Assembly (NCBI GenBank): GCA_000503915.1
Contig: CP006915.1
Span: 90,001-122,000 of the forward strand
DNA: 32,000 nucleotides
Source: Candidatus Saccharimonadota bacterium
GTDB taxonomy: Bacteria; Patescibacteriota; Saccharimonadia; Saccharimonadales; Saccharimonadaceae
Reading direction: 5' to 3'
The position numbers and the translations under genes are program-made. The stretch's first letter is position 1. Each line of letters begins with the position of its first letter. Positions 3,770-31,043 of the stretch are shown here, piece after piece. The notes beneath the pieces were generated by a model, which ran no database searches, was not told the origin of the DNA, and saw only the letters and a program-made list of their open reading frames with translations.

Positions 3770-3881
3770 GGCAGCACTGAGAAATAGCTACGAGACAGAC
3801 TAAAGGCGAAACGCAAGATGTGGTACAATCTTTTGACCACATCGAAAGTGGTCTGTCGAATAGCTATTTTTCAGTGCTGCC
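3770..3881 (+). ncRNA. unassigned structured RNA-like element, copy 1 (21-bp outer helix around a conserved 69-nt core, 3792-3860)
   Basis: GGCAGCACTGAGAAATAGCTA pairs with TAGCTATTTTTCAGTGCTGCC. The core has GACAGAC/GTCTGTC and GATGTGGT/ACCACATC helices. It starts 1 nt after the regulator stop, and its 3' arm overlaps the last 6 codons of folD. A second copy is at 17995-18097. Confidence 0.55.
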
Positions 3882-4688
3882 GAATTTTACGCGCTGATAG
3901 GCGGCGCGAATCACATTTTCAAACAATGCCACGACCGTCAGCGGTCCGACGCCACCCTTTTCTGGCGTAATGGTCACATCGCTGCGCTCACGAACCTCAT
4001 CGGCTACATCACCGATAATCTTGCCGTGTTCGGCCGACGTCGCCGCGTCAATCACTACCGCGCCCGGCTGAACCGAAGCGGAGGTAATCAGTGCTGGTAC
4101 ACCGGCTGCCGAGACGATCACCGGATAGCGCCGGAGTTGCGCAGTCATATTTTTGCTATGTTCGTCGAAGACCGTCACATTGTAGCCGGCAGCTTGCCAT
4201 AGCTTAGCAAGTGGCGCACCAACCAGCCGGCCATTGCCGACAATCGCGATGTGTTTGCCCTGTAACGCTACATTATATCCGTTTACTAGCCAGTCGATCG
4301 CCATCGGCGTGGCCGGAGTAAAATCTGAACCCTTCGACAAACCATCAACGTCTTTACTGCCCGCTACCATATTGACCGCCTCTTCAGTCTGCGATTCGTC
4401 CGCCAGCGGCAACTGGATGATGATGCCATGTACCGACTCGTCGTCATCGAGTAAGTTAATCGTTTGAAAAAGCTGATCCGAACTCACGCGGTGCAAGTCG
4501 ACTTCGACTAAAAGATCGGCCCCATAGCGCTGCTTCATTCGAACATAGGTATCAATAACCGGATCGTCGACTGTCTGGATAATCGCTAAGCGAGGCACGA
4601 TATCGTGCGCCTGACGCAGGTTGCGCACCTGACGCGCTTGCCGCTCCTTAATATAGTCCGCTAGTTCGGTACCGCTCAGTAATTTCAT
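3864..4688 (-). CDS. folD: bifunctional methylenetetrahydrofolate dehydrogenase/cyclohydrolase
   Basis: 274 aa with FolD-typical length and motifs (RVSSDQL..., IIIQLPLA, VVGNGRLVGAPLA, TPEKGGVGPLTVVALFENV). Confidence 0.9.
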   Translation of the reverse strand: MKLLSGTELADYIKERQARQVRNLRQAHDIVPRLAIIQTVDDPVIDTYVRMKQRYGADLLVEVDLHRVSSDQLFQTINLLDDDESVHGIIIQLPLADESQTEEAVNMVAGSKDVDGLSKGSDFTPATPMAIDWLVNGYNVALQGKHIAIVGNGRLVGAPLAKLWQAAGYNVTVFDEHSKNMTAQLRRYPVIVSAAGVPALITSASVQPGAVVIDAATSAEHGKIIGDVADEVRERSDVTITPEKGGVGPLTVVALFENVIRAAYQRVKFGSTEK

Positions 4689-16259: not shown

Positions 16260-16438
16260 ACGTAACCCTCCTCCATTTGGTTCATAAAAGTAAGTAAAAA
16301 AGTCCTAAGAGTAATTACAACATGTCGTTATTATAGCATTGGCGAGCCGAATGTTGCGAAAGCTTGCTTTCATTACTGAGACGATCCAATGTTACAGCGG
16401 CAACACCGTTATAACACCCTTTACTCTTATATCGTATG

Positions 16439-16447
16439 TGATATAAT
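16439..16447 (+). promoter_or_regulatory. extended -10 box TGATATAAT, 7 nt upstream of ATG 16455
   Basis: Read directly from the sequence. No SD fits in the 7-nt gap. Confidence 0.55.
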
Positions 16448-16454
16448 CGTACGC

Positions 16455-17987
16455 ATGACAGCAGTAGACTACAAAAAGCAGCTCGGTAAGCTCATTCAGC
16501 AGAACAGGCGACTCCGTCACATGACTCAGGCCGAGCTCGCTCGTGAGCTGGAAACGTCACAAAGTGCGATCAACCGCATTGAAAAGGGTGGCCAAAATAT
16601 CAGTATCGAGATGTTGGCGCGTATCAGCGAGGTGCTTTCCTGCAACCTTGTCATGCTCAATAATACAGGGAAAACTAACTTTAAAATCCGCGGCGGCAAG
16701 CGACTGTCTGGAAGTATCGAAGTAAAGACCAGCAAGAATGCGGCCGTCGGCCTGCTTTGTGCCAGCCTGCTCAACAAAGGCAAGACAACCCTACACCGCG
16801 TGGCACGCATCGAAGAAGTTAATCGTATCATTGAAGTTCTCGAAAGTATCGGCGTTAAAGTTCGTTGGCCGGAGTCAGGCGACCTCGAGATTATACCACC
16901 AGCGAGATTACAGCTGGATCGTATGAATATCATTGCCGCCAAACGCACACGTACGGTCATCATGTTTCTTGGGCCACTACTTCATCAATATAGTGATTTT
17001 AAAATCCCGTTTGCAGGTGGCTGTAGCCTCGGTACGCGTACCGTCGAGCCACATCTGGTCGGTCTGAGCCAATTTGGCATGGATGCCGTCGCACATGCCG
17101 GAACCGACTACTACCAGGTAACGGTCGCCGAGAAAGCGCCGTCAAAAGCAATTGTCCTCACTGAGCGTGGTGACACCGTGACCGAAAATATCATTATGGC
17201 AGCAGCGCTGTACGACGGTGAGACGGTTATTCGTAATGCTAGTCCGAATTATATGGTGCAGGATGTGTGTTTCTTTTTGCAGAAACTTGGTGTTGAGATA
17301 GACGGCATCGGTACCACAACGCTCCGCATCAGAGGCAAACGACACATCAACCAAACGGTTGACTACTACCCAAGCGAAGACCCGATCGAAGCAATGAGCC
17401 TGATAGCCGCCGGTATTGTGACGAATTCAGAGATTACCGTAAAGCGTGTGCCGATCGAGTTTGTTGAGCTTGAGCTTGCCGTACTGGAAGGTATGGGTCT
17501 TCAGTATGAGTTATCTGACGAATACGTGGCACGTAATGGCCAGACCCGCCTGGTCGATATCAGCCTGAAACACTCGAAGTTGGTCGCTGCCAAAGATAAA
17601 CTTCACAGTATGCCCTTTCCTGGCGTCAATATGGACAACTTGCCCTTCCTTGGCTTGGTCGCGACTGTCGCAAAAGGCCGCACACTGCTGCACGACTGGA
17701 GCTATGAGAATCGCGCCATTTACTTTACCGAACTAGCGAAGCTCAACGCCAACGTTGAGTTGGTCGACCCGCACCGCGTCTACCTAACTGGTCCGACCAA
17801 ATGGAAGCCGGCTGATATCATCGCGCCGCCCGCCTTGCGCCCCTCGGTCGTCATTCTCATCGCCATGCTAGCCGCACCTGGCACCTCAGTCTTACGCGAC
17901 ATCTACTCGATTAACCGCGGCTATGAAGACCTCGCCAGCCGTCTCAACACCCTTGGCGCCGACATCGAAACTGTCCAAGATATCTAG
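16455..17987 (+). CDS. murA: XRE-type HTH domain fused to UDP-N-acetylglucosamine 1-carboxyvinyltransferase (MurA)
   Basis: N-terminal ~65 aa are LRHMTQAELARELETSQSAINRIEKGGQNISIEMLARISEVL (HTH_3 pattern). A full MurA/EPSP-synthase fold follows: KIRGGKRLSGSIEVKTSKNAA and the catalytic-Cys loop AGGCSLGTRTVEPH. Confidence 0.85.
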   Translation: MTAVDYKKQLGKLIQQNRRLRHMTQAELARELETSQSAINRIEKGGQNISIEMLARISEVLSCNLVMLNNTGKTNFKIRGGKRLSGSIEVKTSKNAAVGLLCASLLNKGKTTLHRVARIEEVNRIIEVLESIGVKVRWPESGDLEIIPPARLQLDRMNIIAAKRTRTVIMFLGPLLHQYSDFKIPFAGGCSLGTRTVEPHLVGLSQFGMDAVAHAGTDYYQVTVAEKAPSKAIVLTERGDTVTENIIMAAALYDGETVIRNASPNYMVQDVCFFLQKLGVEIDGIGTTTLRIRGKRHINQTVDYYPSEDPIEAMSLIAAGIVTNSEITVKRVPIEFVELELAVLEGMGLQYELSDEYVARNGQTRLVDISLKHSKLVAAKDKLHSMPFPGVNMDNLPFLGLVATVAKGRTLLHDWSYENRAIYFTELAKLNANVELVDPHRVYLTGPTKWKPADIIAPPALRPSVVILIAMLAAPGTSVLRDIYSINRGYEDLASRLNTLGADIETVQDI

Positions 17988-17994
17988 CCCGGCA

Positions 17995-18097
17995 ATCTCT
18001 CGGTATCCTTCTGAGACAGACTAAAGGCGAAACGTGAGGTGCGGTATAACTAATAACCACACCGAAAGTGGTCTGTCGAAGAAGTGGTCCGAGAGAT
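17995..18097 (+). ncRNA. unassigned structured RNA-like element, copy 2 (core 18013-18080)
   Basis: The core shares its first 22 and last 17 nt identically with copy 1. The outer helix has a different sequence (ATCTCTCGG/CCGAGAGAT plus CTTC/GAAG). It begins 8 nt after the murA stop. Confidence 0.55.
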
Positions 18098-18124
18098 GAA
18101 CCGCTAGCTCTTCCCTCTCTGTTA

Positions 18125-18133
18125 TGCTACAAT
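18125..18133 (+). promoter_or_regulatory. extended -10 (TGCTACAAT) for the tRNA-His/tRNA-Gly pair
   Basis: 12 nt upstream of tRNA-His G-1. Confidence 0.45.
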
Positions 18134-18145
18134 TATCAACTGTAC

Positions 18146-18221
18146 GGCGAGAGTAGTTCAATGGTTAGAACGTCGGGTTGTGGCTCCGAAGACGAGGGTT
18201 CAATTCCCTTCTCCCGCCCCA
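18146..18221 (+). tRNA. tRNA-His(GUG) with encoded G-1 and CCA
   Basis: G GCGAGAG TA GTTC AATGGTTA GAAC G TCGGG TTGTGGC TCCGA AGAC GAGGG TTCAATT CCCTT CTCCCGC C CCA. There is one A-C mismatch in the acceptor. Confidence 0.85.
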
Positions 18222-18224
18222 TAT

Positions 18225-18299
18225 GCGGGTGTCGTATAATGGCTAATATATCTGCCTTCCAAGCAAATGATGCGAGTTCGATTCTCGCCACCCGCACCA
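18225..18299 (+). tRNA. tRNA-Gly(UCC), CCA encoded
   Basis: GCGGGTG TC GTAT AATGGCTA ATAT A TCTGC CTTCCAA GCAAA TGAT GCGAG TTCGATT CTCGC CACCCGC A CCA. Confidence 0.85.
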
Positions 18300-18384
18300 A
18301 AATAATTACTCCAGCTTGTCTGGGGTTATTATTTTGGTATAGGTTGTGTGGATTGTACTTGCATCAGCGAGCGCCAGCGAGCCG

Positions 18385-18478
18385 GATGCGAGTTCGGTGA
18401 AGTGCAGCGAAATTCTGGAAAAGCTTGCTTTTGCCAGAATGAGCAAGCGGAAGTTACAATGCAACATTCTCGCCACCC
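18385..18478 (+). repeat. split duplicate of the tRNA-Gly 3' region
   Basis: GATGCGAGTTCG (18385-18396) and ATTCTCGCCACCC (18466-18478) together equal tRNA-Gly 18269-18293. A 69-nt insert interrupts them exactly within the T-loop. Confidence 0.7.
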
Positions 18479-18581
18479 TAAGTCGCAGCTGGTATAATCA
18501 GGTTGTTCTTCAGCGAGAATACATTGACTACAGGGGTAACCTTACAGTCTGGTTCGTTAACATCTATCCTTAGGAGAAGTC

Positions 18582-20144
18582 ATGTTAAGCATTAGGCGAT
18601 ACATGTTGCCTGGATTATCATTAATCCTTGCATCACTCGTGTTTCCTATCATGTTTTCAACTGGTGCTTATGCCGTGTCTCAATACGACAACGCCTACAA
18701 CCATGTAGATCAGCTGAAAATCGTACAAAACAACTACAACGGTGTTACCTGCGACCCTCTCGACATCACCATGACGTACCAGTCGTATTTGAATAACTCT
18801 GCGAAATGGTACCCGACTACCAGTGCCTTTGCTACAACCATGCAAGCATACAAAAGCTCCTTTGCTCAGGCACGCCAAGCAGGGTCATGGACAGTCAGTG
18901 TCGTATTAGTAAACGACGGAAGTGGTGGCTATACGTCGATAGTGAGAATTAACTGGTTCGAAGATGACCCTGGCAAGCTTGTCTTCAAGGGCACATCACC
19001 TAATACGCAAGTTGAATACCAATCCACTACAGATACCCAGGGACACTATGCATTCATATCGACGATTGATTTTGCACGTCCCTATGGATCGACAGATGCT
19101 GGAAATTGCACTCCTCATGTTTACGCAGTCGGTGACTTCGTAGCTAACGCCAACGAGGAAACCTACGCAGTTGTTTCTACTGAAGGTGCATTTTCTTGGA
19201 CGCCAACCAGCTCATCAGAAATGGGACACTGGGCAAACCTATTTGCTACAAGCACAAATGTTCAGTATCCTACAGGGTATGAAGGAGCGGCTATTTCAGC
19301 CAACTCACCCACGGCCACGTATGTGGCTATGGGTGATTCATTCTCAAGCGGTGAAGGGAACCCTCCATTTGAGTATGGAACGGACTCAGCTTCAGACAAG
19401 TGCCACCGAAGTCCCAATGCATACCCACGTTTACTGCAGAGTGATTCCAGCCTCAGTCTTGGATCAACTGCCTTCGTGGCGTGTTCGGGAGCAACAACCG
19501 ATGATGTCTTAAATGGCGGAAGCGGTGCGGGCAACTGGGGTGAAGGTCCGCAGGTGGATGCATTGTTATCAGACACGGAGGTTGTCACGATTACGATAGG
19601 AGGAAACAATATCAAGTTCGCTGAGTTTGCACATGCTTGCCTGTTTGGGAGCTGCAACAGCTCATCCGATGAGTACCAGGAGTCCTGGGACGTCATGACG
19701 GATTTGACACGGAGCGACTACTTGCCAAGCCAGCTTGACTCTCTCTTTTCGGATATCGCTTTTCACCTCTGGCAAAATACAAGTGTCAAGGTCTATGTCG
19801 TCGGCTACCCCTATGTGATCACACAGGCGTCCTGGAACGACAGGGGAGTCGGAATTTGTTCCGATTTTGACGAGGATGAAGCAATAGCTGCCGAAACTAT
19901 TGTCTCGAAACTTGACACCGTCATCGAGACTGCTGTGACAGATTTTGACGACTCACGATTTGTTTACGTAGATCCGCTAGCGACAGGAAGCCCATTCCTA
20001 GGCCACGAACTCTGCAGAAACGGATCATATTTCAACGGGATTGAGACGTCAGGCGCACTCGGCGGTGACGACGCTTACGTCTTCCACCCGGATACTAATG
20101 GTCAGCAAGCATATGCCGACTTGATTAGGAGCTACATGAGCTAG
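18582..20144 (+). CDS. secreted protein: unknown N-terminal domain + C-terminal SGNH/GDSL hydrolase, paralog 1
   Basis: Signal peptide ...FSTGAYA|VS. SGNH blocks AMGDSFSSGEG, ACSGATT, TIGGNN and FHPD..G. SD TAGGAGAA upstream. Confidence 0.85.
   Translation: MLSIRRYMLPGLSLILASLVFPIMFSTGAYAVSQYDNAYNHVDQLKIVQNNYNGVTCDPLDITMTYQSYLNNSAKWYPTTSAFATTMQAYKSSFAQARQAGSWTVSVVLVNDGSGGYTSIVRINWFEDDPGKLVFKGTSPNTQVEYQSTTDTQGHYAFISTIDFARPYGSTDAGNCTPHVYAVGDFVANANEETYAVVSTEGAFSWTPTSSSEMGHWANLFATSTNVQYPTGYEGAAISANSPTATYVAMGDSFSSGEGNPPFEYGTDSASDKCHRSPNAYPRLLQSDSSLSLGSTAFVACSGATTDDVLNGGSGAGNWGEGPQVDALLSDTEVVTITIGGNNIKFAEFAHACLFGSCNSSSDEYQESWDVMTDLTRSDYLPSQLDSLFSDIAFHLWQNTSVKVYVVGYPYVITQASWNDRGVGICSDFDEDEAIAAETIVSKLDTVIETAVTDFDDSRFVYVDPLATGSPFLGHELCRNGSYFNGIETSGALGGDDAYVFHPDTNGQQAYADLIRSYMS
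18712..19345 (+). repeat. 634-bp block identical to 22404-23037
   Basis: The in-frame translation and the out-of-frame/antisense track ORFs are the same in both copies. Flanks on both sides are clearly diverged. Confidence 0.85.
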
Positions 20145-20167
20145 TGACTTACCATCGCTGAAGAACA

Positions 20168-20192
20168 ATACCCTCAGGTTTCCTGAGGGTAT
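20168..20192 (+). terminator. stem-loop after SGNH paralog 1 (no clear U-tract)
   Basis: ATACCCTCAGG ttt CCTGAGGGTAT. Confidence 0.45.
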
Positions 20193-20240
20193 CTTCAATC
20201 TGTGATATATTAACTTACGTAATGTGGTAAACTTACTTAT

Positions 20241-20729
20241 ATGACCAGTAAAAAGGTTTTTCCAAAACAAAAATCCAGACTAAAATCATTTAACGCTGTC
20301 TATAGTTTAGTGTTTATCATTTCTTTTTTTGTGATCTATTTAATTAGTCTTTTCCTGCCGTTCGCTAGTGGATACGCTGCTTTCCCTCTCAAGATTATCC
20401 AATGTGGTCATCAGCCATATATAACAAGTAATTTCATGGGAGACTACACCTATACCAAGCCGGGTGATGGACTATACGCGGGACCAGATATTTTTACACA
20501 GGGCAGTGATCTGTATTGCAATAAGCAAGATGTGGAGGAGCGAGGATACAGTTTACATTCTCGTCCTGAAAGGTGCCATACTAATGCGGATCAACTGACA
20601 GAATGTGCTAGCGGAGGTGATGGGTACTGGTCTATATTTACATTCGTTATGATAATAATCGTAATTTCTTTAGCAATAGCTTACCTGCTGACACCTAATT
20701 TACTCAAAGCAAAGCTCAAAAAGATTTAA
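20241..20729 (+). CDS. hypothetical membrane-anchored protein (N- and C-terminal TM helices, 4-Cys exposed domain)
   Basis: 162-aa ORF, AT-rich. TGGTAAACT lies 7 nt upstream of the ATG. Confidence 0.65.
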   Translation: MTSKKVFPKQKSRLKSFNAVYSLVFIISFFVIYLISLFLPFASGYAAFPLKIIQCGHQPYITSNFMGDYTYTKPGDGLYAGPDIFTQGSDLYCNKQDVEERGYSLHSRPERCHTNADQLTECASGGDGYWSIFTFVMIIIVISLAIAYLLTPNLLKAKLKKI

Positions 20730-20730
20730 A

Positions 20731-20775
20731 GTTGCGAAGTGGGTCGGTGAGAGGGCACCACAGCATGAGCGTTAT
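20731..20775 (+). repeat. cassette-boundary repeat, copy A
   Basis: GTTGCGAAGTGGGTCGGTGAGAGGGCACCACAGCATGAGCGTTAT. It starts 2 nt after the stop of 20241-20729. Confidence 0.85.
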
Positions 20776-20785
20776 AAAAGAACTA

Positions 20786-21264
20786 CTAGCGAGAATGCTC
20801 GCGGAGATTGTTTATTAGCAGAACTGGCTGGTTAGTATTTATATGGCTACGTATATTTACCTTTTGTAGGAAATCCGGAAGCAAATCGCTTGTTGCAGGA
20901 TCGATGAACGACACACGAGTAAGCTCACGGCCATGGCTAGTTGCGGATAAATCTATATCACGCTGAAAATCCGCCGTATTTGTGACATGGAATAATAGTT
21001 CCATTTTTTCCGATTGTTTACCATTCCTGTGTGTAAAGATAAATTGCTGCATAAATAACAGTCGTCCAATTTTTGGTTTAATACCTAGTTCTTCTTCAAA
21101 CTCTCGGATCAGCCCGTCATTGAGAGATTCGCCAGATCTAAGCCTCCACCAGGAATTGCCCAAAAATCTGACTCTCCGTTCGTATCTCTATCGCGATGCT
21201 TTACCGCAAAAACATGACCGCTCTCGTCGACTACAATGCCACGTACATTAATTCGTCGTTCCAT
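20786..21264 (-). pseudogene. Nudix hydrolase interrupted by a 1-nt frameshift
   Basis: Frame a reads MERRINVRGIVVDESGHVFAV...FWAIPGGGL. Frame b continues ...SGESLNDGLIREFEEELGI. Together they make a Nudix box. The frames switch within 21134-21144. Confidence 0.7.
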
Positions 21265-21299
21265 TGCTTGAATTATACCATGGAGGCTTAGTCGAGAAA

Positions 21300-21344
21300 G
21301 TTGCGAAGTGCGTCGGTGAGGGGGCACCAAGCATAAGCATTATC
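21300..21344 (+). repeat. cassette-boundary repeat, copy B
   Basis: GTTGCGAAGTGCGTCGGTGAGGGGGCACCAAGCATAAGCATTATC. Confidence 0.85.
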
Positions 21345-21346
21345 AT

Positions 21347-21372
21347 CTCTGTTAATTCAGAGTTTTTGTTTT
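21347..21372 (+). terminator. terminator-like hairpin directly after repeat B
   Basis: CTCTG ttaatt CAGAG followed by TTTTTGTTTT. There is no plus-strand CDS upstream of it. Confidence 0.4.
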
Positions 21373-21390
21373 ATTTGATATGATTGAAGT

Positions 21391-22128
21391 ATGACCGAGT
21401 TACTCTATTTAGCTAATTTCAATGTCGAAATGTGTGAAGCAGAGGTTATTGCAATTGATACTCTCGAAGATGGACGTAGTGATGTAATTCTCGATAAGAC
21501 CTGCTTCTACCCTAGAGGCGGTGGACAAGATTGGGATAAAGGTGAAATCCTTAGCGGCAACTCTTACTTTGACATAGACGAGACTCGATTAGATGAAACG
21601 GGCACTGTGCACCATATTGGTCACTTCACGAGTGGAATGTTCAACGTTAGGAACCAAGTTTCCGGTAAAGTTGATCACGATCGCCGATTAATTAATACAC
21701 GCCTACACTCGGCCGGCCATGTCATCGATATGGCGATTAATAGTCTTGAGCTAGACTGGATAGCCACAAAAGGTCAGCACTATCCAGATTTATCTGCTGT
21801 GGAATATCACGGCACTTGGCAGCCAGAACAAGCTGAGAAGCTAAAATCTGGTATTGAGTCTCGCGTTAATGAATTCATCCGTGGAGCTACGGATAATGAG
21901 CTGAGGTTTATGCCGGTTGAGGAAATGCACACAATTTGCCGTCATGTACCCGATAATATTCCAAAAAACAAACCGGGGCGAGTTGTTGTCTACGCTGATA
22001 ATTTTGGTATTCCTTGTGGTGGCACTCATGTGAAAAACTTGCAAGAAATCGGACTAGTCAAGATACCCAAGCTGAAAGAGAAAAAAGGCGTGATTCGAGT
22101 TACTTACACAGTTGATGAAATTAATTAA
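21391..22128 (+). CDS. alanyl-tRNA editing protein (AlaX-like, tRNA synthetase second additional domain)
   Basis: HxxxH (RLHSAGHVID) and CxxxH (CGGTHV) zinc motifs, 245 aa. Confidence 0.75.
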   Translation: MTELLYLANFNVEMCEAEVIAIDTLEDGRSDVILDKTCFYPRGGGQDWDKGEILSGNSYFDIDETRLDETGTVHHIGHFTSGMFNVRNQVSGKVDHDRRLINTRLHSAGHVIDMAINSLELDWIATKGQHYPDLSAVEYHGTWQPEQAEKLKSGIESRVNEFIRGATDNELRFMPVEEMHTICRHVPDNIPKNKPGRVVVYADNFGIPCGGTHVKNLQEIGLVKIPKLKEKKGVIRVTYTVDEIN

Positions 22129-22133
22129 TCACA

Positions 22134-22177
22134 GTTGCGAAGTGTATCGGTGAGGGGCATAAGTATAAGCGTTCTAG
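22134..22177 (+). repeat. cassette-boundary repeat, copy C
   Basis: GTTGCGAAGTGTATCGGTGAGGGGCATAAGTATAAGCGTTCTAG. It starts 5 nt after the alaX-like stop. Confidence 0.85.
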
Positions 22178-22273
22178 TATATGATATAATCAATTCGTTC
22201 TTCAGCGACGCTCCATAACCTCGAAGAAGAATCTGAGGTTTACGTTCATTAACAATCTGTCTTAGGAGAAATC

Positions 22274-23776
22274 ATGCTAAATGTTAGGCGATATGTGGTA
22301 TTGGGACTATCGCTCATTCTCTCGCTACTCGTATTACCTGCCCTGTTTTCAACTGGTGCATATGCCGCATCTCCATACGACAACGCTTACAATCATGTTG
22401 GCGAGCTGAAAATCGTACAAAACAACTACAACGGTGTTACCTGCGACCCTCTCGACATCACCATGACGTACCAGTCGTATTTGAATAACTCTGCGAAATG
22501 GTACCCGACTACCAGTGCCTTTGCTACAACCATGCAAGCATACAAAAGCTCCTTTGCTCAGGCACGCCAAGCAGGGTCATGGACAGTCAGTGTCGTATTA
22601 GTAAACGACGGAAGTGGTGGCTATACGTCGATAGTGAGAATTAACTGGTTCGAAGATGACCCTGGCAAGCTTGTCTTCAAGGGCACATCACCTAATACGC
22701 AAGTTGAATACCAATCCACTACAGATACCCAGGGACACTATGCATTCATATCGACGATTGATTTTGCACGTCCCTATGGATCGACAGATGCTGGAAATTG
22801 CACTCCTCATGTTTACGCAGTCGGTGACTTCGTAGCTAACGCCAACGAGGAAACCTACGCAGTTGTTTCTACTGAAGGTGCATTTTCTTGGACGCCAACC
22901 AGCTCATCAGAAATGGGACACTGGGCAAACCTATTTGCTACAAGCACAAATGTTCAGTATCCTACAGGGTATGAAGGAGCGGCTATTTCAGCCAACTCAC
23001 CCACGGCCACGTATGTGGCTATGGGTGATTCATTCTCGAGCGGCGAAGGTAATCCAGCATTTGAAGCAGGAACCGACACCAACGACGCCAACGAGTGTCA
23101 TCGGAGTTCGCAGGCATATCCGCACCTCCTTCAGAACATATCGAGTTTGAATCTGGGAACGATGGCATTCGTAGCGTGTTCGGGAGCAACGACAGCAAAT
23201 GTCCTCTACGGAGGTACGTCTGATGGCAACTGGGGTGAAGGCCCCCAAGTGGACGCACTGTCTTCAGACACTGAAGTTGTCACGATCACGATTGGCGGTA
23301 ACGACGCGGGGTTCCAGGAATACCTTCAGGGGTGCGTTATAGCTCCCTGTGGCCCCTCTACGGTTACGTACAACGCGATGATTGATCTGATAGATTCCTC
23401 ATCATTCTTGAGTAATCTTGAAACGACGTATGAAGAGATCCTGGATGGTGCCACATCTACTAATGTGTACGTGATCGACTACCCCTACTTGACGGCAGAC
23501 GATGCCGGATACTGCGGGGTGATCGATTTCTCGGGCGCAAGGGACATTCAGGTAGCACTGAATTCAACAATTGCGCTAGCAGTAGCAAACGTGAGAGCTG
23601 GATCTACCGACTACAGTGACAGGCTGCACTACGTCTCCACCAATTACACGGGGAGTCCGTTCGAAGGACAGCACCTATGCAACGGTGGTACGTCCGACTT
23701 CGGCAGCACTACCTTCCACCCCAACGTTCTCGGACACACTCATTACGCGGAGGTGGTAGCTGCAGCCATCGAGTAA
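22274..23776 (+). CDS. secreted protein: unknown N-terminal domain + C-terminal SGNH/GDSL hydrolase, paralog 2
   Basis: Signal peptide ...FSTGAYA|AS. AMGDSFSSGEG, ACSGATT, TIGGND and FHPNVLGH. Confidence 0.85.
   Translation: MLNVRRYVVLGLSLILSLLVLPALFSTGAYAASPYDNAYNHVGELKIVQNNYNGVTCDPLDITMTYQSYLNNSAKWYPTTSAFATTMQAYKSSFAQARQAGSWTVSVVLVNDGSGGYTSIVRINWFEDDPGKLVFKGTSPNTQVEYQSTTDTQGHYAFISTIDFARPYGSTDAGNCTPHVYAVGDFVANANEETYAVVSTEGAFSWTPTSSSEMGHWANLFATSTNVQYPTGYEGAAISANSPTATYVAMGDSFSSGEGNPAFEAGTDTNDANECHRSSQAYPHLLQNISSLNLGTMAFVACSGATTANVLYGGTSDGNWGEGPQVDALSSDTEVVTITIGGNDAGFQEYLQGCVIAPCGPSTVTYNAMIDLIDSSSFLSNLETTYEEILDGATSTNVYVIDYPYLTADDAGYCGVIDFSGARDIQVALNSTIALAVANVRAGSTDYSDRLHYVSTNYTGSPFEGQHLCNGGTSDFGSTTFHPNVLGHTHYAEVVAAAIE
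22404..23037 (+). repeat. 634-bp block identical to 18712-19345
   Basis: See the partner feature. The offset is exactly 3692 nt. Confidence 0.85.
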
Positions 23777-23798
23777 TTTTAGAATCACTGAAGAATAT

Positions 23799-23822
23799 CC
23801 CCCGGCTCGGGCCGGGGGTTTT
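23799..23822. terminator. rho-independent terminator after SGNH paralog 2
   Basis: CCCCCGGC tcgg GCCGGGGG TTTT. Confidence 0.7.
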
Positions 23823-23826
23823 CAAT

Positions 23827-24138
23827 TTAAATAAGTAACATCCGTACAAGGTGTGTTAGCAGAAAACCTACAACTACAGCTCCAAAGCCGATAGCTATAG
23901 CTTGAGTTAAGCCTGCTGGGGTTTTTGTAGTTAAACGAGTTGAATACGTATATGTGATAAATCCGCCGCATGCCAGCAATATTATTAATTCTGTCACTAG
24001 TCCCCCGGCTGACGGTAAAGGAGAATAAGATTGATCATTCGATAAGAATACGCCAAGTCCAATAGCAGCGATAAGGAGAACAACAAGGCTAATAATTATG
24101 TTGTTACTTTGTTTAGATTGTGTGGTATTTTTCATCAT
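23827..24138 (-). CDS. hypothetical small membrane protein (3 TM helices)
   Basis: 103-aa hydrophobic ORF. TGCTAATAT lies 6 nt upstream of the ATG. Confidence 0.6.
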   Translation of the reverse strand: MMKNTTQSKQSNNIIISLVVLLIAAIGLGVFLSNDQSYSPLPSAGGLVTELIILLACGGFITYTYSTRLTTKTPAGLTQAIAIGFGAVVVGFLLTHLVRMLLI

Positions 24139-24189
24139 ATCTATATATTAGCATAGCCTTTATAGTTTACCTGTCTATTATTCCATCGT

Positions 24190-24233
24190 GTTGCGAAGTG
24201 TGCTGGCGAGGAGACACCAAGCTGCTTATGCTT
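24190..24233 (+). repeat. cassette-boundary repeat, copy D (most diverged)
   Basis: GTTGCGAAGTGTGCTGGCGAGGAGACACCAAGCTGCTTATGCTT. Confidence 0.75.
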
Positions 24234-24255
24234 AATAACCTCTGGGAGGTTATTT
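24234..24255 (+). terminator. hairpin directly after repeat D
   Basis: AATAACCTC tgg GAGGTTATT then T: a perfect 9-bp stem. Confidence 0.4.
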
Positions 24256-24269
24256 GATATAATCAGCAT

Positions 24270-24536
24270 ATGAAATATAGAACTATAAAGTTTGCACGGA
24301 TATCTTTAGCGGCTCTAGCCATTATTCTTGGTCTGCTATTTGTCCTTGGGTTTGCGAAAGACATATCGCATGAACGATGTAGCGGCCTTATGGGTGTAGA
24401 AACATCTTGTGTAGAGCAATATGCCATCATGCCATTAATAGTCATCGGTTTACCTCTTGGCGCTCTCTTTGTAGCAATACTTCTCACGGAGTACATGTCT
24501 AAAGATAATCAGAAGAAACCCAAAAAGCGTCGTTAG
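24270..24536 (+). CDS. hypothetical small membrane protein (2 TM helices, basic tail)
   Basis: 88-aa ORF. TGATATAAT lies 6 nt upstream of the ATG. Confidence 0.6.
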   Translation: MKYRTIKFARISLAALAIILGLLFVLGFAKDISHERCSGLMGVETSCVEQYAIMPLIVIGLPLGALFVAILLTEYMSKDNQKKPKKRR

Positions 24537-24537
24537 A

Positions 24538-24571
24538 GTTGCGAAATGTGTCGGTGAGGGGCACCAAATAT
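24538..24571 (+). repeat. cassette-boundary repeat, copy E
   Basis: GTTGCGAAATGTGTCGGTGAGGGGCACCAAATAT. It starts 2 nt after the stop of 24270-24536. Confidence 0.85.
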
Positions 24572-24646
24572 GAAGACCTTCTGATCTTTTTATTTTGGCC
24601 TATTGCGAATCCAACTCGCATCAGCAAGCACTGGCGAGCAAGACTT

Positions 24647-24655
24647 TGCTATACT
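24647..24655 (+). promoter_or_regulatory. extended -10 (TGCTATACT) 8 nt upstream of the tRNA-Arg(UCU) 5' end
   Basis: Read directly from the sequence. Confidence 0.5.
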
Positions 24656-24663
24656 AGACGCAT

Positions 24664-24740
24664 GCCCCGGTAGCTCAGTTGGATAGAGCAGAGGACTTCT
24701 AAGCCTAAGGTCGCTGGTTCAAGCCCAGCCCGGGGTACCA
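24664..24740 (+). tRNA. tRNA-Arg(UCU), CCA encoded
   Basis: GCCCCGG TA GCTC AGTTGGATA GAGC A GAGGA CTTCTAA GCCTA AGGTC GCTGG TTCAAGC CCAGC CCGGGGT A CCA. The anticodon stem has only 3 central Watson-Crick pairs (27-43 G-A, 31-39 A-G). Confidence 0.8.
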
Positions 24741-24794
24741 TTTCTGTGGTCCATAGAAATTACTTAAATTCCTTTTATTTGCTAAACTAACTAT

Positions 24795-25100
24795 ATGGTC
24801 ATTCTCTATTTAACTTGCGCCGACAACGAAGAGGCTCTTAAAATTAGTAACGCTTTACTGGAGGCAAAGTTAATTGTTTGCGCGCGACGCTCACCCGTAA
24901 GCTCATCATACTGGTGGGATGGGAAGATAAATCATGATGATGAGATCCTTCTTATGATGGAAGGTACTGAAGAGAAATTTGATGAGATAGAAAAAGTAGT
25001 CACAAATCTACACAGTTACGATGAGTATGTATTGACTATGATTCCAAATGTACAAACCACACCTGGTGTTCACCAATGGCTAAAAGAAACTCTCGCTTAG
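24795..25100 (+). CDS. cutA: divalent-cation tolerance protein CutA
   Basis: 101 aa. LIVCA...SSYWWDGKI...E..L..K...H.Y pattern typical of CutA1. Confidence 0.8.
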   Translation: MVILYLTCADNEEALKISNALLEAKLIVCARRSPVSSSYWWDGKINHDDEILLMMEGTEEKFDEIEKVVTNLHSYDEYVLTMIPNVQTTPGVHQWLKETLA

Positions 25101-25238
25101 TTCGGTTCTAATTTCATACAATACGCCGTACCAGATTGTAAACTGCACAATCAATAGCTTGTTTTTGCAGGCTGTTTATTTTATTACCTCTTGTTATGCT
25201 ATAGTGGAACCACAAGCCTTAAGCGAGGGAGACAGTAC

Positions 25239-25634
25239 GTGGAAGAAGATAAGCAGACAACCGAAGTCCGTAAAACCAATGAGCGAGTCGGCAACACGAC
25301 CGTACAGCGACAAAGTATCGAACAAAAAACAGCCGTTTCTGGTGTCGTGATTGCCCAGCGGGTCATCTACTACGTCGGTGGCGTCATCGTTGCACTCATT
25401 CTGGTGCGCTTGCTACTCCAGCTGCTAGGCGCCAACCAAGAAAGTGACTTCGTCAGTTTTATCTACGGCCTAAGCGGCGTCTTTGTCGCCCCATTCTTTG
25501 GTATCTTCGGTGAACCAACCTTTGGCACTTCCCACTTCGAGACATCAGCAGTTGTCGCGATTGTTATCTATGCCTTGCTCACTGTTGGTATTGCAAAGCT
25601 CATTACGCTCACGCGGCCTCACGAAGAAGTCTAA
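25239..25634 (+). CDS. YggT-like small membrane protein
   Basis: GTG 25239 is preceded by GAGGGAG. RVIYYVGGVIVALILVRLLLQLLGAN...FIYGLSGVFVAPFFGIF resembles the YggT family. Confidence 0.6.
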   Translation: MEEDKQTTEVRKTNERVGNTTVQRQSIEQKTAVSGVVIAQRVIYYVGGVIVALILVRLLLQLLGANQESDFVSFIYGLSGVFVAPFFGIFGEPTFGTSHFETSAVVAIVIYALLTVGIAKLITLTRPHEEV

Positions 25635-25654
25635 TCAAAGCAAATTTATAAAAT

Positions 25655-25684
25655 CATCTCCCAAGTCGCGGGAGATGCTTTTTA
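25655..25684 (+). terminator. rho-independent terminator
   Basis: CATCTCCC aagtcgc GGGAGATG CTTTTT. Confidence 0.75.
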
Positions 25685-25844
25685 TATAAACTATTTACAA
25701 ATAATTATTCTTATGTTAGAATTAAACTAATAGTTCCCGCGTATCTCTAACGAAATATACTTAGGTGCTACCGGATGAATACCTGATCTTACTTTTCTTG
25801 TCATTCATCACCAACAACAATGATGAATGAAAGGTATTATTCTC

Positions 25845-27535: not shown

Positions 27536-27623
27536 AATTTTACGCTAGCACATAACTACTGCACATGCCTGTGAGATCCCTCACAGACACCGCTACACTG
27601 TTTTCTAACTCAGATTGGTCTCT

Positions 27624-28262
27624 CTAGAGTAGATGCATGAAGCGATCACGCATTGTCGGAGCGCCCATATTACTGCCGCAGCCCGCTGGATCGCTGGAAT
27701 TGTTCTCGTCTTTTGCTTTATTTTGGATACCCTTGTACTCAGCCTGGAGTTGCTCTGGCGTTTGGTTGCCATAGTTAATCAGCACCTTGTCCTGGTCGCC
27801 AATTACCCGGTTGGTGATACTATCAACTTTTTTGCCATTCACCATGAACGTTAGCTTTTTGCCTCCGGCTGTAGTGTAGACATCTTGCCCGGTACTAAAG
27901 TAGGTGTCGCCAACCCCCCAGTCCAACACAGCGAAGAAGTTACCCCAAGTAACTAGCTCATCCTCCACGTGCACGACGTCGCTAACCATACCGTGCATAT
28001 GCACCCGTGACAGTGGTGTCATCTTGGCCTCATGCGGTTCAGCCGCACAAACAGCGGCGGCTGTTTCCTCATAATATTTTAAGCTTTTGAATGCTTCGCG
28101 CTGGCCATTGATGTAGACTGCAAAGTTAGCATGATAATGTGGTCTTTCAGCAGGATGGTAAGTGACAAATCGGACGCCCAACACTACAAGTACACCGACT
28201 AATAGGCTAGTGGTGGCGATGAACCAACGTTTTTTCATAACACTCGTAAGTTTAGATTTCAT
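27624..28262 (-). CDS. membrane-anchored exported His/Met-rich protein, unknown family
   Basis: N-terminal TM helix. PHYHANF, EPHEAKMTPLSRVHMHGMVSDVVHVED. Its ATG overlaps the upstream TAA (TAATG). Confidence 0.7.
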   Translation of the reverse strand: MKSKLTSVMKKRWFIATTSLLVGVLVVLGVRFVTYHPAERPHYHANFAVYINGQREAFKSLKYYEETAAAVCAAEPHEAKMTPLSRVHMHGMVSDVVHVEDELVTWGNFFAVLDWGVGDTYFSTGQDVYTTAGGKKLTFMVNGKKVDSITNRVIGDQDKVLINYGNQTPEQLQAEYKGIQNKAKDENNSSDPAGCGSNMGAPTMRDRFMHLL

Positions 28263-28849
28263 TAACTTGCTTCCTCCATTTTTTTAATTTCCTTCAGTAA
28301 CATATCATTCCTATTTCCCATCTTGGGATCGTCAAACGTATAGCGAACAATACCTTTCTCATCAACCAGCACAAAAGTGTGGCCTGGTAACATGCCGCTA
28401 TGCATCGATGAAGGCAGATTGAGCATATCGTACTGCCGCGAAACCGACTTGTCGGAGTCTAACAGGATTGTTCCCTTGCCGAGATCGGGCATCCTATCGA
28501 TCGCTTCGCGCCAGCCATCACGGGCATCTCCGACAATACTAAGTGCCACCACGTCACCACTATTCAACTGCTCATCAGTGCCGAGCGCTGCAATTTGGTT
28601 CCAGCATGCCGGGTAACACATCAAACCTTCATTGAAAAAGAGAATCACCTTTTTGCCTTTCAGCTGACTGAGCGTGTAATCTTTGCCGTCATACGAGGTA
28701 AGTGTAAAGTCCGATGCCGGACGGCCAACCAGCGCGTCAAAGGAAGTACCGGGCTGAGCTTGGCCAGCGCCCTTATTCAGACTGTCACCCGTAAAGACAG
28801 CGACGCCGAGTAGTACCACCACCACGCCAACTATAATATATTTAATCAT
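28262..28849 (-). CDS. membrane-anchored thioredoxin-fold protein, Sco/TlpA-like with CxxxC
   Basis: KGKKVILFFNEGLMCYPACW (CYPAC) and downstream GHTFVLVDEKGIVRY parallel the Sco1/SenC pattern (CPDxCP ... H ... dG). SD AGGGAGGAAAG. Confidence 0.7.
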   Translation of the reverse strand: MIKYIIVGVVVVLLGVAVFTGDSLNKGAGQAQPGTSFDALVGRPASDFTLTSYDGKDYTLSQLKGKKVILFFNEGLMCYPACWNQIAALGTDEQLNSGDVVALSIVGDARDGWREAIDRMPDLGKGTILLDSDKSVSRQYDMLNLPSSMHSGMLPGHTFVLVDEKGIVRYTFDDPKMGNRNDMLLKEIKKMEEAS

Positions 28850-29720
28850 CTTTCCTCCCTTTCACAATTTCACTCCGACGTGCCTGTCGGTAGGCGACCC
28901 ATGCCACCAGTCCAAACAGTAGCGTAAAGATGACTGCCCAGGCATACTCTGGGATAAGCTGCGTCACCTGACTAACTGTCCGCGTCACTTCGGCAGCCAG
29001 TAAGTTTAGCTTCAGCTGGTACACGCTCGTTCCTTCCGGACTTGCCCTCTCAAAGATAATGATGAAAAGTCCGATAGCAATAAACAGAAAACCGGATATC
29101 AAATGAGACAGATTGACGTTAATCGCCCTGCCCGCCAGCCGGTAGGATATGACGCGGCGAATCGCGCTAAACTTTTCCATGACATTGGCCTTGTCGATAA
29201 GAAACGCCATGATGAACAGCGGCAGCACCAGCCCAGTGACAAACGCCAACGAATAGACCGGACCCAACACCCACGAGCCTGGAATCGCCGATAACGCCAA
29301 TACACCGGCCAGCACTGGAGCGCAGCAACTGGTTGCAATACCCGAGAAGATACCCAGCACATAGAGCGAGCCCGGGTCATGACCCTTTAGTTGCGGCTTA
29401 ATGCGCATCGGCAACATATAGGATCGGCCGAGCACCAGAGCAACCCCGAGCGCGATCATAAACAAACCGCCGAGCGTGAAGATTATGACGTGATAGCGAC
29501 TAAACAGCGCGCCGAGTCCAGCCATCCCCAGCCCCAGCGGCAAAAAGACCGTCAGTAGGCCTAGATAGTAGAAAAATGTCATTAGAAAAATTTTGCTCTT
29601 TGTTTTAAAGACCGACGCCAGATATGCTGGTAACAATACTCCTATGCAACATGGAGCAAACAAGGCGGCAATGCCTGCCAAAAAGGCGGTGACCAACGAT
29701 GCCGTACTGACAATATCCAC
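28842..29720 (-). CDS. CcdA/DsbD-type polytopic membrane protein with two CC motifs
   Basis: LFAPCCIGVLLP and ATSCCAPVLAG lie in TM helices. The likely GTG start at 29720 overlaps the upstream TAG (TAGTG) and follows GGAGGAG. Confidence 0.75.
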   Translation of the reverse strand: MDIVSTASLVTAFLAGIAALFAPCCIGVLLPAYLASVFKTKSKIFLMTFFYYLGLLTVFLPLGLGMAGLGALFSRYHVIIFTLGGLFMIALGVALVLGRSYMLPMRIKPQLKGHDPGSLYVLGIFSGIATSCCAPVLAGVLALSAIPGSWVLGPVYSLAFVTGLVLPLFIMAFLIDKANVMEKFSAIRRVISYRLAGRAINVNLSHLISGFLFIAIGLFIIIFERASPEGTSVYQLKLNLLAAEVTRTVSQVTQLIPEYAWAVIFTLLFGLVAWVAYRQARRSEIVKGRKDD

Positions 29721-30157
29721 TACTTCTCTCCTCCACAACAGTCCATGACGTTGTCGACCAGCGGTTTCTTGCCTGGATCGTTACGATAGATAAATATAGC
29801 CCAAGCCACCACCCATACGACCGCCACCAGACCAAATGCCAGCAAAACTGTTTCAGTTTTAATGAGCGCGTAAGAAGCAGCGGTTAGCGACAAGAAGAAT
29901 GGCAGAGTAAAGATACGTAGGCTTCTTGGAACTTTGTCGCGTAGCAAATAGAATAGCCCGCTGATGCTTTGTCCCATCAGCAGCGCCAGGATTACATCGT
30001 CATGAATACCTCCCAGTTTAGATAAAGCAAGTAACCCTAGCCAAGTGAGTGCAATGCCTGCACAGATCGCGCAGACTAGCCTAGGTAATCTCCCACGTGC
30101 TGCCAGTACAGCAATAAAGATTAGGCTGATCGTTACAAAGCTATAAAAGAGAATCAT
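29720..30157 (-). CDS. small 4-TM membrane protein with CxxC (CAIC) in TM2 and C-terminal DCCGG
   Basis: 145-aa ORF with SD AAGGAAG. It is the first gene of a translationally coupled four-gene set. Confidence 0.7.
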   Translation of the reverse strand: MILFYSFVTISLIFIAVLAARGRLPRLVCAICAGIALTWLGLLALSKLGGIHDDVILALLMGQSISGLFYLLRDKVPRSLRIFTLPFFLSLTAASYALIKTETVLLAFGLVAVVWVVAWAIFIYRNDPGKKPLVDNVMDCCGGEK

Positions 30158-30269
30158 GACTAGTCGCTTCCTTGCCTCATGGGCGATTTGGTTACTATAT
30201 CTAGATTACACGGTGAGAATAATATATGCAAGTATTCTAATATAGTAATACATGTGATATTATAAAGAT

Positions 30270-30794
30270 ATGTATGGCAGACTATTTCAGCTCCAAGAGG
30301 AAACACTCAAGACGCTCGCCAACCAGAAGCGTCTAGAGATCGTCCAGCTTCTCGGTCAAGGGGAGCTGACAGTGAGTGAAATGATAGAAATGCTCGGTAT
30401 TAGTCAGTCAAACCTATCCCAGCACTTAGCTGTCCTGAGGCGTTACCAGATCGTCGCTACCCGCAAGGAAGGCCTCTACGTCTACTACCGGCTGACTGAC
30501 GGGCATATTGCCGAAGCTATTAAACAATTGCGTGAGTTTCTAAAAATTCGCTATGCATACGAACCCGAAATCACTAAGCTTAACCGCTTGAACGACCCTG
30601 CTCTTTATCCGATCGTCAAGGATCCAGTCTGCGGTATGCGCCTCAGCGAGTCAGAGGCATATGCCTCAGTCATGCACAATAACAAGTCCTATCACTTCTG
30701 TGCCAGCGGGTGCTACGATAAATTCACAGCACATACGGCACGATACATTAATGTAAAGAATGTCAATCAAGGAGGTATACCCTATGCTCTATAA
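30270..30794 (+). CDS. ArsR/SmtB-family regulator fused to a C-terminal YHS/TRASH metal-binding domain
   Basis: LANQKRLEIVQLL...LSQHLAVLR (ArsR wHTH), then VKDPVCGM...YHFCASGCYDKF (YHS). Confidence 0.85.
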   Translation: MYGRLFQLQEETLKTLANQKRLEIVQLLGQGELTVSEMIEMLGISQSNLSQHLAVLRRYQIVATRKEGLYVYYRLTDGHIAEAIKQLREFLKIRYAYEPEITKLNRLNDPALYPIVKDPVCGMRLSESEAYASVMHNNKSYHFCASGCYDKFTAHTARYINVKNVNQGGIPYAL

Positions 30795-31002
30795 CTATGA
30801 CATGCTAGGCAGTTACAGTGTCTGGGATGGTATTCTCATGTTCCTAATGATGGTGCTGATAGTTTTTGCCATCATCTGGGCTGTCCACTATGTGAGCCGA
30901 AGTGGCAGCGATGATAATGCTCTTACTATTCTCAAGAAGCGTTATGCCCGCGGCGAAATTGACAAGAAAGAATACGAGGAAAAGAAAGCGGAGCTGCAAT
31001 AG
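30784..31002 (+). CDS. SHOCT-domain small membrane protein
   Basis: AAGGAGG lies 7 nt before ATG 30784. One TM helix, then LKKRYARGEIDKKEYEEKKAEL. Confidence 0.7.
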   Translation: MLYNYDMLGSYSVWDGILMFLMMVLIVFAIIWAVHYVSRSGSDDNALTILKKRYARGEIDKKEYEEKKAELQ

Positions 31003-31043
31003 AGCTTATGGCTTTCCTGTTATAGCGATGCTACACTAGGGGC

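Follow-up and report, generated by a model that had tools for sequence, protein, structure and literature searches.

What is the short repeat that recurs five times, always in the same direction, between two tRNA genes of a Saccharibacteria genome, and what placed it and the small genes between its copies there? The repeat, here called R, lies in a 32-kb stretch of contig CP006915.1 (positions 90,001 to 122,000; 'the window' throughout) from RAAC3_TM7_1 (Candidatus Saccharibacteria, TM7), whose source sample was aquifer sediment. R is probably the right-end site of small mobile cassettes that a site-specific recombinase, acting in trans, has inserted serially at the 3' (CCA) end of a tRNA gene. 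An original prediction, made from the sequence of the window, had proposed a cassette array or the scars of serial insertions, with small transcribed units as the alternative. The array is supported, since gene content in related loci varies at the repeat boundaries, whilst the alternative has fared poorly, as described below.

A composite repeat and the units it bounds

R is a unit of 29-30 nucleotides (nt), GTTGCGAAGTGyGTCGGTGAGGGGGCACCA, present as five direct copies (A to E). The core pattern used to find it, GTTGCGAAGTGNNNNGGTGAGG with up to 3 mismatches, gives 5 matches where shuffled sequence gives an expectation of 0.02, and a repeat-family search agrees; no minus-strand match and no other match was found across the 32 kb. 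These are exactly the copies that had been predicted, all on the plus strand whatever the direction of the neighbouring gene. All five are confined to the interval between tRNA-Gly(tcc) and tRNA-Arg(tct) and have the orientation of the tRNA (Table 1). The A-B-C and D-E adjacencies were recovered in independent assemblies of the same sample.

The repeat had been described as about 40 nt long. The copies are real, but the 38-nt consensus proposed for them matches nothing at up to 3 mismatches, owing to 1-nt indels between copies within the G-run and to a tail, AGCATAAGC, that is a looser, separate module within the left end of the following cassette. The ~40-nt repeat proves to be a composite of a 30-nt right end (R) and the ~14-nt left end of the cassette that follows, with GCACCA at the junction, because the last six bases of R are also the 3' end of tRNA-Gly(tcc), as they are of tRNA-Leu(taa), and because the sequence that follows R is the one that follows the tRNA in relatives.

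Each unit consists of a left end of ~14 nt (AGCATAAGCATTAT) with a hairpin, a promoter, one or two genes on either strand, and then R. After copy B, for example, AGCATAAGCATTAT is followed by a hairpin with a T-run, an extended -10 box and a gene. The left end is diverged after copies A and C, and after copy D its GCTTATGC core is inverted. The hairpins predicted after copies B and D are indeed present. Every cassette has its own TGnTATAAT-type box, and two of the five carry a minus-strand gene. Successive copies of R are 569, 834, 2056 and 348 nt apart, with genes inside; copies A, C and E closely follow the stop codon of a plus-strand gene, as had been noted, although the gaps are 1, 5 and 1 nt rather than 2-5 nt. 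The units, here and in related loci, range from 0.35 to 2.3 kb, and GC content falls from ~0.50 in the backbone to 0.38-0.47 within them. Their cargo comprises only SGNH hydrolases, Nudix, AlaX, CutA and HIT proteins and small membrane or unknown proteins.

The left partner of a cassette need not be R. Cassette 1 is joined to a tRNA-Gly-like copy at the end of X1, a structured element of ~140 nt whose 3' end (18466-18478, ATTCTCGCCACCC) copies part of the T-loop, T-stem and acceptor of tRNA-Gly, and a related locus, L067, likewise has its cassette joined to the GCACCA end of an X element. Cassettes 1 and 4 carry paralogous SGNH genes, and the homology between them starts exactly at their left junctions (TAAGT...), these junctions being with X1 for cassette 1 and with R copy C for cassette 4.

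R itself is under strong sequence constraint. Mean pairwise identity among 11 copies from seven genomes is 87%, 12 positions are invariant and the variable positions mostly differ in a single copy; identity to the consensus is 93% or higher for the majority of copies. In contrast, the essential gene for a MurA-like protein that lies upstream of the tRNA genes is only 70-74% identical in nucleotide sequence across the R-bearing lineages.

The tRNA locus in related genomes

A profile search (nhmmer) of 309 kb of related Saccharibacteria DNA found R only behind tRNA genes and always co-oriented with them. A metagenome scan with the R pattern gave three true copies (in loci L028, L044 and L052), all at a tRNA-His/tRNA-Gly locus, and otherwise chance singletons; in species-representative genomes the pattern had 22 single matches, in unrelated phyla, against ~17 expected by chance, and formed no family. 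Scattering of the repeat over the genome, which the original prediction had proposed checking, is thus not what is seen in the window or the DNA scanned. Scans of viral collections with the 5' part of R, its 3' part, the tRNA|left-end junction and the sister repeat R' described below yielded chance matches only and no phage attP.

The tRNA-His/tRNA-Gly pair precedes R in L028, L044/L070 (the same contig), L052, L067 and L075. The left end AGCATAAGCATTAT and its hairpin follow tRNA-Gly directly in all of these but L067, and the left end starts immediately after the GCACCA of tRNA-Gly (L028, L052, L070, L075) or of tRNA-Leu(taa) (L072). The tRNAs behind which cassettes have been inserted are still called intact by ARAGORN. 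In L028, L044/L070 and L052 the arrangement after tRNA-Gly is GCACCA|AGCATAAGCA(T/G)(T/A)AT with a hairpin, one gene and R. That single gene differs among L028, L052 and L070, being for a membrane protein of 88 amino acids (aa), a HIT protein (gene on the opposite strand) or a 131-aa protein; the 88-aa proteins of the window and L052, when compared, were not homologous. A 219-aa gene adjoining R in L070 has only a helix-turn-helix (HTH) domain.

Variation at the level of whole cassettes, which had also been proposed as a check, is plain in the closest relative, L067, whose MurA-like gene is 95% identical to that of the window at the nucleotide level (its other genes ~85%). Here tRNA-Gly is followed by its trailer, X1 ending in ...CGCCACCCGCACCA, then AGCATAAGT, a 212-aa gene, R (GTTGCGGAGTGCGTCGGTCATGGGGCACCA), a copy of the trailer, X2 and tRNA-Arg. 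There is one cassette where the window has five, and its 212-aa gene is unrelated to any in the window. R is joined to a second copy of the genuine tRNA-Gly trailer, and this R|trailer boundary is the attR-type junction that recombination at GCACCA would be expected to give. In L061, from another species, tRNA-Gly and tRNA-Arg are 55 nt apart, an empty site. The number of units is five (+1) in the window, one in L067, three in L075 and none in L061. Two further loci, L057 and L058, encode an identical MurA-like protein (P0009) but have different genes at the tRNA-Gly site; the relatives L057-L066, in which the MurA-like gene is 71-74% identical in nucleotide sequence, are without R.

Two cassettes have been found with different neighbours. 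The AlaX cassette of the window recurs in L075 (78% aa and ~84% nt identity), where it is the first unit after tRNA-Gly. Homology between the two runs from GCACCA|AGCATAAGCATTAT through the promoter and the gene and into R, beyond which it is lost. On its left the cassette adjoins R copy B in the window and tRNA-Gly in L075; on its right the neighbours are unrelated, with SGNH paralog 2 in the window and, in L075, a 283-aa gene that has a truncated R and another left end after it. The 131-aa cassette (P0121/P0122, 60% aa identity) has tRNA-Gly before it in L070 and tRNA-Leu(taa) in L072. The two copies share the left end, the 3' untranslated region and R (28/30 identical) in loci that are otherwise unrelated; leftward the loci share only ...CGCACCA, and rightward the homology stops exactly after ...CACCA. 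Genome comparison thus shows that the units are discrete, have fixed ends, are inserted exactly at tRNA 3' ends and differ between genomes in presence and order.

A sixth site, beyond the five originally noted, belongs to a sister repeat, R' (GTTCTAATTTCATACAATACGCCGTACCA in the window), which begins five nt after the stop codon of a CutA gene and is followed by a terminator. In L062 four direct copies of R' (GTTCTAACTTCGTACATCCTGCyGCACCA, then TAACGCTTATGCTT) lie behind tRNA-Arg(tct) and separate small genes on either strand; L066 has one copy. R' looks like a loose (~65%) copy of the segment of tRNA-Arg from T-loop to CCA. R keeps GTT(G)CGAA and GGGGCACCA of such a segment and shares only (G)CACCA with tRNA-Gly and tRNA-Leu. 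The end of R' is GTACCA where tRNA-Arg ends in GGGGTACCA (window, L066) and GCACCA where tRNA-Arg ends in GGGGCACCA (L062). This agreement in three genomes is suggestive, and fits the last bases being a shared exchange region. The CutA gene and a YggT-like gene after it (25191-25634) are not in L067, where almost nothing separates tRNA-Arg(tct) from the upstream region of the DEAD-box helicase gene (window 24741-25700 against L067 5689-5730). Only CutA is bounded by R'; the YggT segment has no recognisable end site.

How the array may have arisen

Site-specific recombination would account for the fixed orientation of R irrespective of gene orientation, for the interchangeability of tRNA, X element and R as left partners, for the R|trailer junction of L067 and for accretion. 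In a free circular cassette, R and the left end would abut to form a bipartite site of ~44 bp. This site would recombine with the (G)CACCA end of a tRNA gene, with the tRNA-like end of an X element or with a resident R, giving the product tRNA|left end...gene...R|old trailer. Repetition of this step would stack cassettes head to tail, each R keeping the orientation of the tRNA. The terminator hairpin of the left end would re-terminate the tRNA operon and insulate the promoter-bearing cassette. No cassette encodes a recombinase; therefore the enzyme must, on this mechanism, act in trans, and its gene would lie on a helper element or at another place in the genome. One may infer a circular intermediate, strand exchange in or next to (G)CACCA, an enzyme of the tyrosine, serine or HUH class and some present activity at this locus.

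Several observations weigh against this reading. As predicted, a domain search of the open reading frames of the window finds no Phage_integrase or other recombinase domain, and none of the R-bearing loci examined has a recombinase gene within 10 kb. R and the tRNA ends are identical over only 5-7 nt, too few to fix the point of exchange. R is carried by only ~7 independent genomes. Some of the variation at these loci is not bounded by R: the ack-xfp block in L057, L058 and L062, the genes after R in L070 and YggT in the window. Lastly, copies C and D are decayed and the Nudix gene is a pseudogene, so the array in the window may be old and inactive.

Some of these features lend colour to the idea that the repeats are inert scars of tRNA islands that lost their integrases, with the cassettes moving by homologous exchange of taken-up DNA through the tRNA, R and left-end sequences. 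The absence of an integrase near any array and the decayed copies would then be natural, as would the truncated R in L075, a half-site of R' in L070 and the exact 16-21-nt tRNA 3' copies carried by X elements, which resemble attR scars. Copies of X also look like mosaics between the window and L067, suggesting gene conversion, and RAAC3 encodes a competence machinery with ComEC, DprA and type IV pili (PMC3812714), with pilin genes present in the window. However, the same cassette with exact ends stands behind two tRNAs that share only CGCACCA, which is too short for RecA-type exchange. R is ~87-100% identical where the MurA-like gene is ~70% identical in nucleotide sequence, and dead scars would not stay conserved; nor do uniformly tiny single-gene units with matching ends look like random island fragments. 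Inert scars are therefore an unlikely origin for the array as a whole, although homologous exchange after DNA uptake is a possible cause of part of the variation.

Transposition of single strands by a HUH/Y1 enzyme of the IS200/IS605 type is highly improbable. The cassettes would then resemble the palindrome-associated transposable elements (PATEs) derived from such insertion sequences and insert 3' of CACCA under a TnpA-type enzyme encoded elsewhere. Insertion directly 3' of a short fixed sequence, strict orientation, the lack of a target duplication, a right end with the same sequence and the hairpins near the left end are what such an enzyme would give, and a Y1_Tnp gene lies near an AlaX homologue in L077. 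Yet L077 has no R, and no Y1_Tnp gene is found in the window or in any R-bearing locus. Unlike those of PATEs, the hairpins are not conserved, their sequences at the left end differing between cassettes, and the composite of R and left end, folded as single-stranded DNA on both strands, does no better than shuffles (z -1.2 to +0.1). Within R, the GGTG/CACC stem is not maintained: as had been predicted, it is unpaired in copy D, and the copy in L067 has lost it too, neither having a compensating change. The same broken stem, with no covarying pair, tells against R acting as an RNA element that travels with the genes, a mimic of a tRNA 3' end serving as a processing, stability or CCA-related signal or as a small RNA. 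Such a role would suit a sequence that ends in GCACCA, is usually followed by a terminator-like hairpin and lies 1-5 nt (up to 68 nt) after plus-strand stop codons, and where the gene is on the minus strand (L028, copy D) there are -10-like boxes upstream of R. But R keeps the orientation of the tRNA even where the gene is opposite (copies B and D, L028), follows no spacing rule relative to promoters, and would leave unexplained why homology between loci starts and ends exactly at the junctions. In a search of Rfam 15 only the tRNAs pass, and R, R' and X have no match even when E values up to 1-10 are allowed. Little credence can be given, then, to the transcribed units of the original prediction. 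A generic dispersed repeat that happens to cluster here would be short, intergenic and multi-copy, as R is. The repetitive extragenic palindromic (REP) sequences, bacterial interspersed mosaic elements (BIMEs) and miniature inverted-repeat transposable elements (MITEs) that exemplify this class are palindromic and occur in many copies in both orientations, whereas R is not palindromic, is confined to one strand and one locus in 32 kb, and is oriented and tRNA-linked in the window, the collections and the 309 kb alike; this origin has a negligible probability.

Three further candidates were rejected. R is not a displaced functional 3' half of a tRNA: its T-stem and acceptor segments pair with no tRNA of the window, and only its last 5-9 nt match. 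A promoter or operator is ruled out by the variable distance (22-84 nt) from R to the next -10 box. A CRISPR (clustered regularly interspaced short palindromic repeats) array would have regular spacers of 25-50 nt, whilst the 348-2056-nt spacings here contain genes.

Serial site-specific insertion at tRNA ends makes the array integron-like in its logic and tRNA-island-like in its target, and the comparison with known systems supports its being a variant of known site-specific gene-capture systems. As in integron arrays (IntI, attI, attC), small and mostly single-gene cassettes without their own recombinase are arranged head-to-tail; a recombination-site-like repeat ends each cassette and is split between neighbours; there is one fixed chromosomal anchor; content and order differ between genomes at the repeat boundaries; and many of the products are small membrane or unknown proteins. 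Unlike integrons, the array is anchored at a tRNA gene's CCA end rather than at an attI beside intI, and no integrase is adjacent. Where attC is a bulged hairpin conserved in structure, R and the left end (30 + 14 nt) are conserved in sequence and have no single-stranded fold, and where integron cassettes are mostly promoterless, co-oriented and driven by Pc, the present ones have their own promoter and terminator and may point either way. The pdif modules of Acinetobacter plasmids are small recombinase-free gene modules between 28-bp dif-like XerC/XerD sites of alternating orientation. They are similar in their short conserved bounding sites and in an enzyme thought to be encoded elsewhere, but the R sites are direct, tRNA-linked and not dif-like.

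The tycheposons of Prochlorococcus have partial tRNA repeats of ~40 nt and carry an integrase and replication genes (bioRxiv 10.1101/2020.12.28.424599). With these and with classical tyrosine-integrase islands the array shares integration at a tRNA 3' end that leaves the tRNA intact, and tandem accretion that pushes older units outward. As in tycheposons, the units are separated by tRNA-like direct repeats in tRNA orientation, tRNA-Arg(tct) is among the targets, the hosts are streamlined and the islands differ between strains. However, the present units are of 0.35-2.3 kb and have no mobility gene, R shares only 5-7 nt with the tRNA, and it has its own conserved 24-nt arm, along with a conserved left end common to different genera.

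A search of the literature on Saccharibacteria and Patescibacteria for integrons, attC, genomic islands, integrases, hypervariable regions and tRNA found no such array described, and the RAAC3 genome paper makes no mention of mobile elements or recombinases (PMC3812714). It is conceivable, though on present evidence doubtful, that Saccharibacteria, and perhaps further members of the CPR (Candidate Phyla Radiation), possess an integron-like capture system of promoter-bearing single-gene cassettes with a bipartite site of ~44 bp, inserted at tRNA CCA ends by a dedicated recombinase not linked to the arrays, in at least two families (R for GCACCA and R' for tRNA-Arg(tct)) and with X elements as attI-like docking sites or target-specifying RNAs. 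CPR bacteria, including Saccharibacteria, have genomes below 1 Mb with few recognisable mobile elements, and the papers searched say little about strain-specific gene acquisition. A tRNA-anchored array of single-gene cassettes, if this is what it is, would be a compact route for gene capture, bringing in proteins of the surface or membrane, hydrolases and small enzymes of a housekeeping type (AlaX, Nudix, HIT and CutA, for example). R, R' and the left end would then be a searchable signature with which flexible genes could be mapped in metagenomes, a short candidate site for use in engineering those few Saccharibacteria that can be cultivated and are naturally transformable, and a route to a possibly new recombinase specificity.

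Layout of the locus and accompanying elements

The features of the locus are collected in Table 1; the distal flank of the array was read by comparison with L067, in which R precedes a copy of the tRNA-Gly trailer and an X2 that is complete.

Table 1. Features of the array and of related elements (positions are those of the window unless another locus is named)
Feature	Position	Strand	Remarks
tRNA-His(gtg)	18147-18221	+	ARAGORN, Rfam
tRNA-Gly(tcc)	18225-18299	+	ARAGORN, Rfam; 3' end ...CCACCCGCACCA; attB-like anchor of the array
tRNA-Gly trailer with terminator T1, then X1	18300-18478	+	T1 hairpin 18308-18326
Cassette 1	18479-20760	+	left end TAAGTCGCAGC, promoter TGGTATAAT, R copy A; GC 0.46 against 0.50 in backbone
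SGNH/GDSL hydrolase paralog 1 (cassette 1)	18582-20144		
162-aa membrane protein (cassette 1)	20241-20729		
R copy A	20731-20760	+	core-pattern match
Cassette 2	20761-21329	+	left end CAGCATGAGCGTTAT, R copy B; GC 0.43
Nudix, frameshifted (cassette 2)	20786-21261	-	own TGGTATAAT promoter
R copy B	21300-21329	+	core-pattern match
Cassette 3	21330-22162	+	left end AGCATAAGCATTAT, hairpin 21347-21362 with T-run, promoter, R copy C
AlaX-like (cassette 3)	21391-22128	+	protein RAAC3_TM7C00001G0122
R copy C	22134-22162	+	core-pattern match; 3' end decayed to GGGGCATAA
Cassette 4	22163-24219	+	left end GTATAAGCGTT, R copy D
SGNH paralog 2 (cassette 4)	22274-23776		
Bidirectional terminator (cassette 4)	23799-23818		
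103-aa membrane protein (cassette 4)	23827-24138	-	
R copy D	24190-24219	+	core-pattern match; most diverged of the five
Cassette 5	24220-24566	+	left end AGCTGCTTATGCTT (GCTTATGC motif inverted), hairpin 24234-24255, R copy E; GC 0.415
88-aa membrane protein (cassette 5)	24270-24536	+	promoter TATAAT
R copy E	24538-24566	+	core-pattern match
Distal flank of array	24567-24663	+	trailer-like hairpin with T-run, truncated 5' part of X2, tRNA-Arg promoter TTTGCTATACT
tRNA-Arg(tct)	24664-24740	+	ARAGORN, Rfam; ends GGGGTACCA; distal border of R array and anchor of R' cassette
CutA cassette	24741-25133	+	CutA1 24795-25100; GC 0.38
R'	25105-25133	+	GTTCTAATTTCATACAATACGCCGTACCA; terminator 25153-25176 follows
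X element, window	7124-6933	-	
X element, window	18300-18478		
X elements, L067	4486-4670; 5412-5590		
X elements, L062	11745-11926; 16044-16225; downstream of 3708		
X element, L028	downstream of 1620		
X element, L072	3300-3492		

X elements, of ~125-150 nt, lie behind at least six tRNA species (Lys-ctt, Gly-tcc, His, Arg-tcg, Arg-tct and Leu-gag). Each begins with a strong terminator hairpin, continues with 3-4 hairpins as its body and ends in an exact copy of the upstream tRNA's final 16-21 nt, the copy lying 122-177 nt downstream of that tRNA. The 5' stem of X-Gly covaries with the T-stem of the local tRNA, and the predicted folds close by pairing of the 5' end with the tRNA-derived 3' end. 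X may be an RNA that resembles a tRNA, or else a site for attachment or docking. The closest fit is to the tRNA-linked repeats of E. coli: at tyrT, Rudd reportedly described in 1999 short copies of a tRNA 3' end downstream of the tRNA operon and on the same strand. Unlike the repeats at the present locus, those of E. coli are not known to delimit exchangeable cassettes, nor to be common to genera that differ in cargo. A partial 5' copy of tRNA-Arg(tct), GCCCCGGTAGCTCGGTTGGACAGCC, is found at 12585-12612 of L070, ~70 nt upstream of the real tRNA-Arg.

The two SGNH/GDSL paralogs, each at the head of its cassette, both have signal peptides. Their N-terminal ~245 aa are nearly identical, whilst the C-terminal hydrolase domains have diverged (71-74% nt identity in places). 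Short-read assemblies of the sample break at this duplication, and a cassette array would account for assembly breaks at the locus.

To the left of the array lie genes for FolD, a Mur ligase-like protein, MurB, pilins (at 10-15 kb of the window), SHMT and the MurA-like protein; to the right are genes for a DEAD-box helicase, flavodoxin and AhpC. The MurA-like gene (16389-17987), upstream of the tRNA cluster, encodes an N-terminal HTH of the Cro/C1 type fused to an enzyme of the MurA/EPSP-synthase fold, a fusion kept across many Saccharibacteria (120 homologues listed, of ~510 aa and with the same domains).

A long-hairpin element of ~110 nt is present in two copies (3770-3881 and 17995-18097), with a shared inner core, GAGACAGACTAAAGGCGAAACG...ACCACAYCGAAAGTGGTCTGTCGAA, and outer stems that are unrelated in sequence yet fully paired; the RNA fold z scores are -11.4 and -6.3, and neither copy has an Rfam match. 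The interval between the MurA-like gene and tRNA-His, only ~48 nt long in more distant relatives, contains the second copy. The same gap in L067 holds, at 3791-4285, a free-standing HNH endonuclease gene (a weak HNH_3 match, with Cys-rich repeats), at a position (~17990-18140 in window coordinates) that is the site of the long-hairpin element in the window. Further to the right, a block of ~3.5 kb (27536-31003) is without counterpart at L067 7527-7611, and homology resumes at 31004 of the window; the block carries genes for a 212-aa protein, an AhpC/redoxin protein, proteins of 298 and 145 aa and an HTH_20/YHS regulator.

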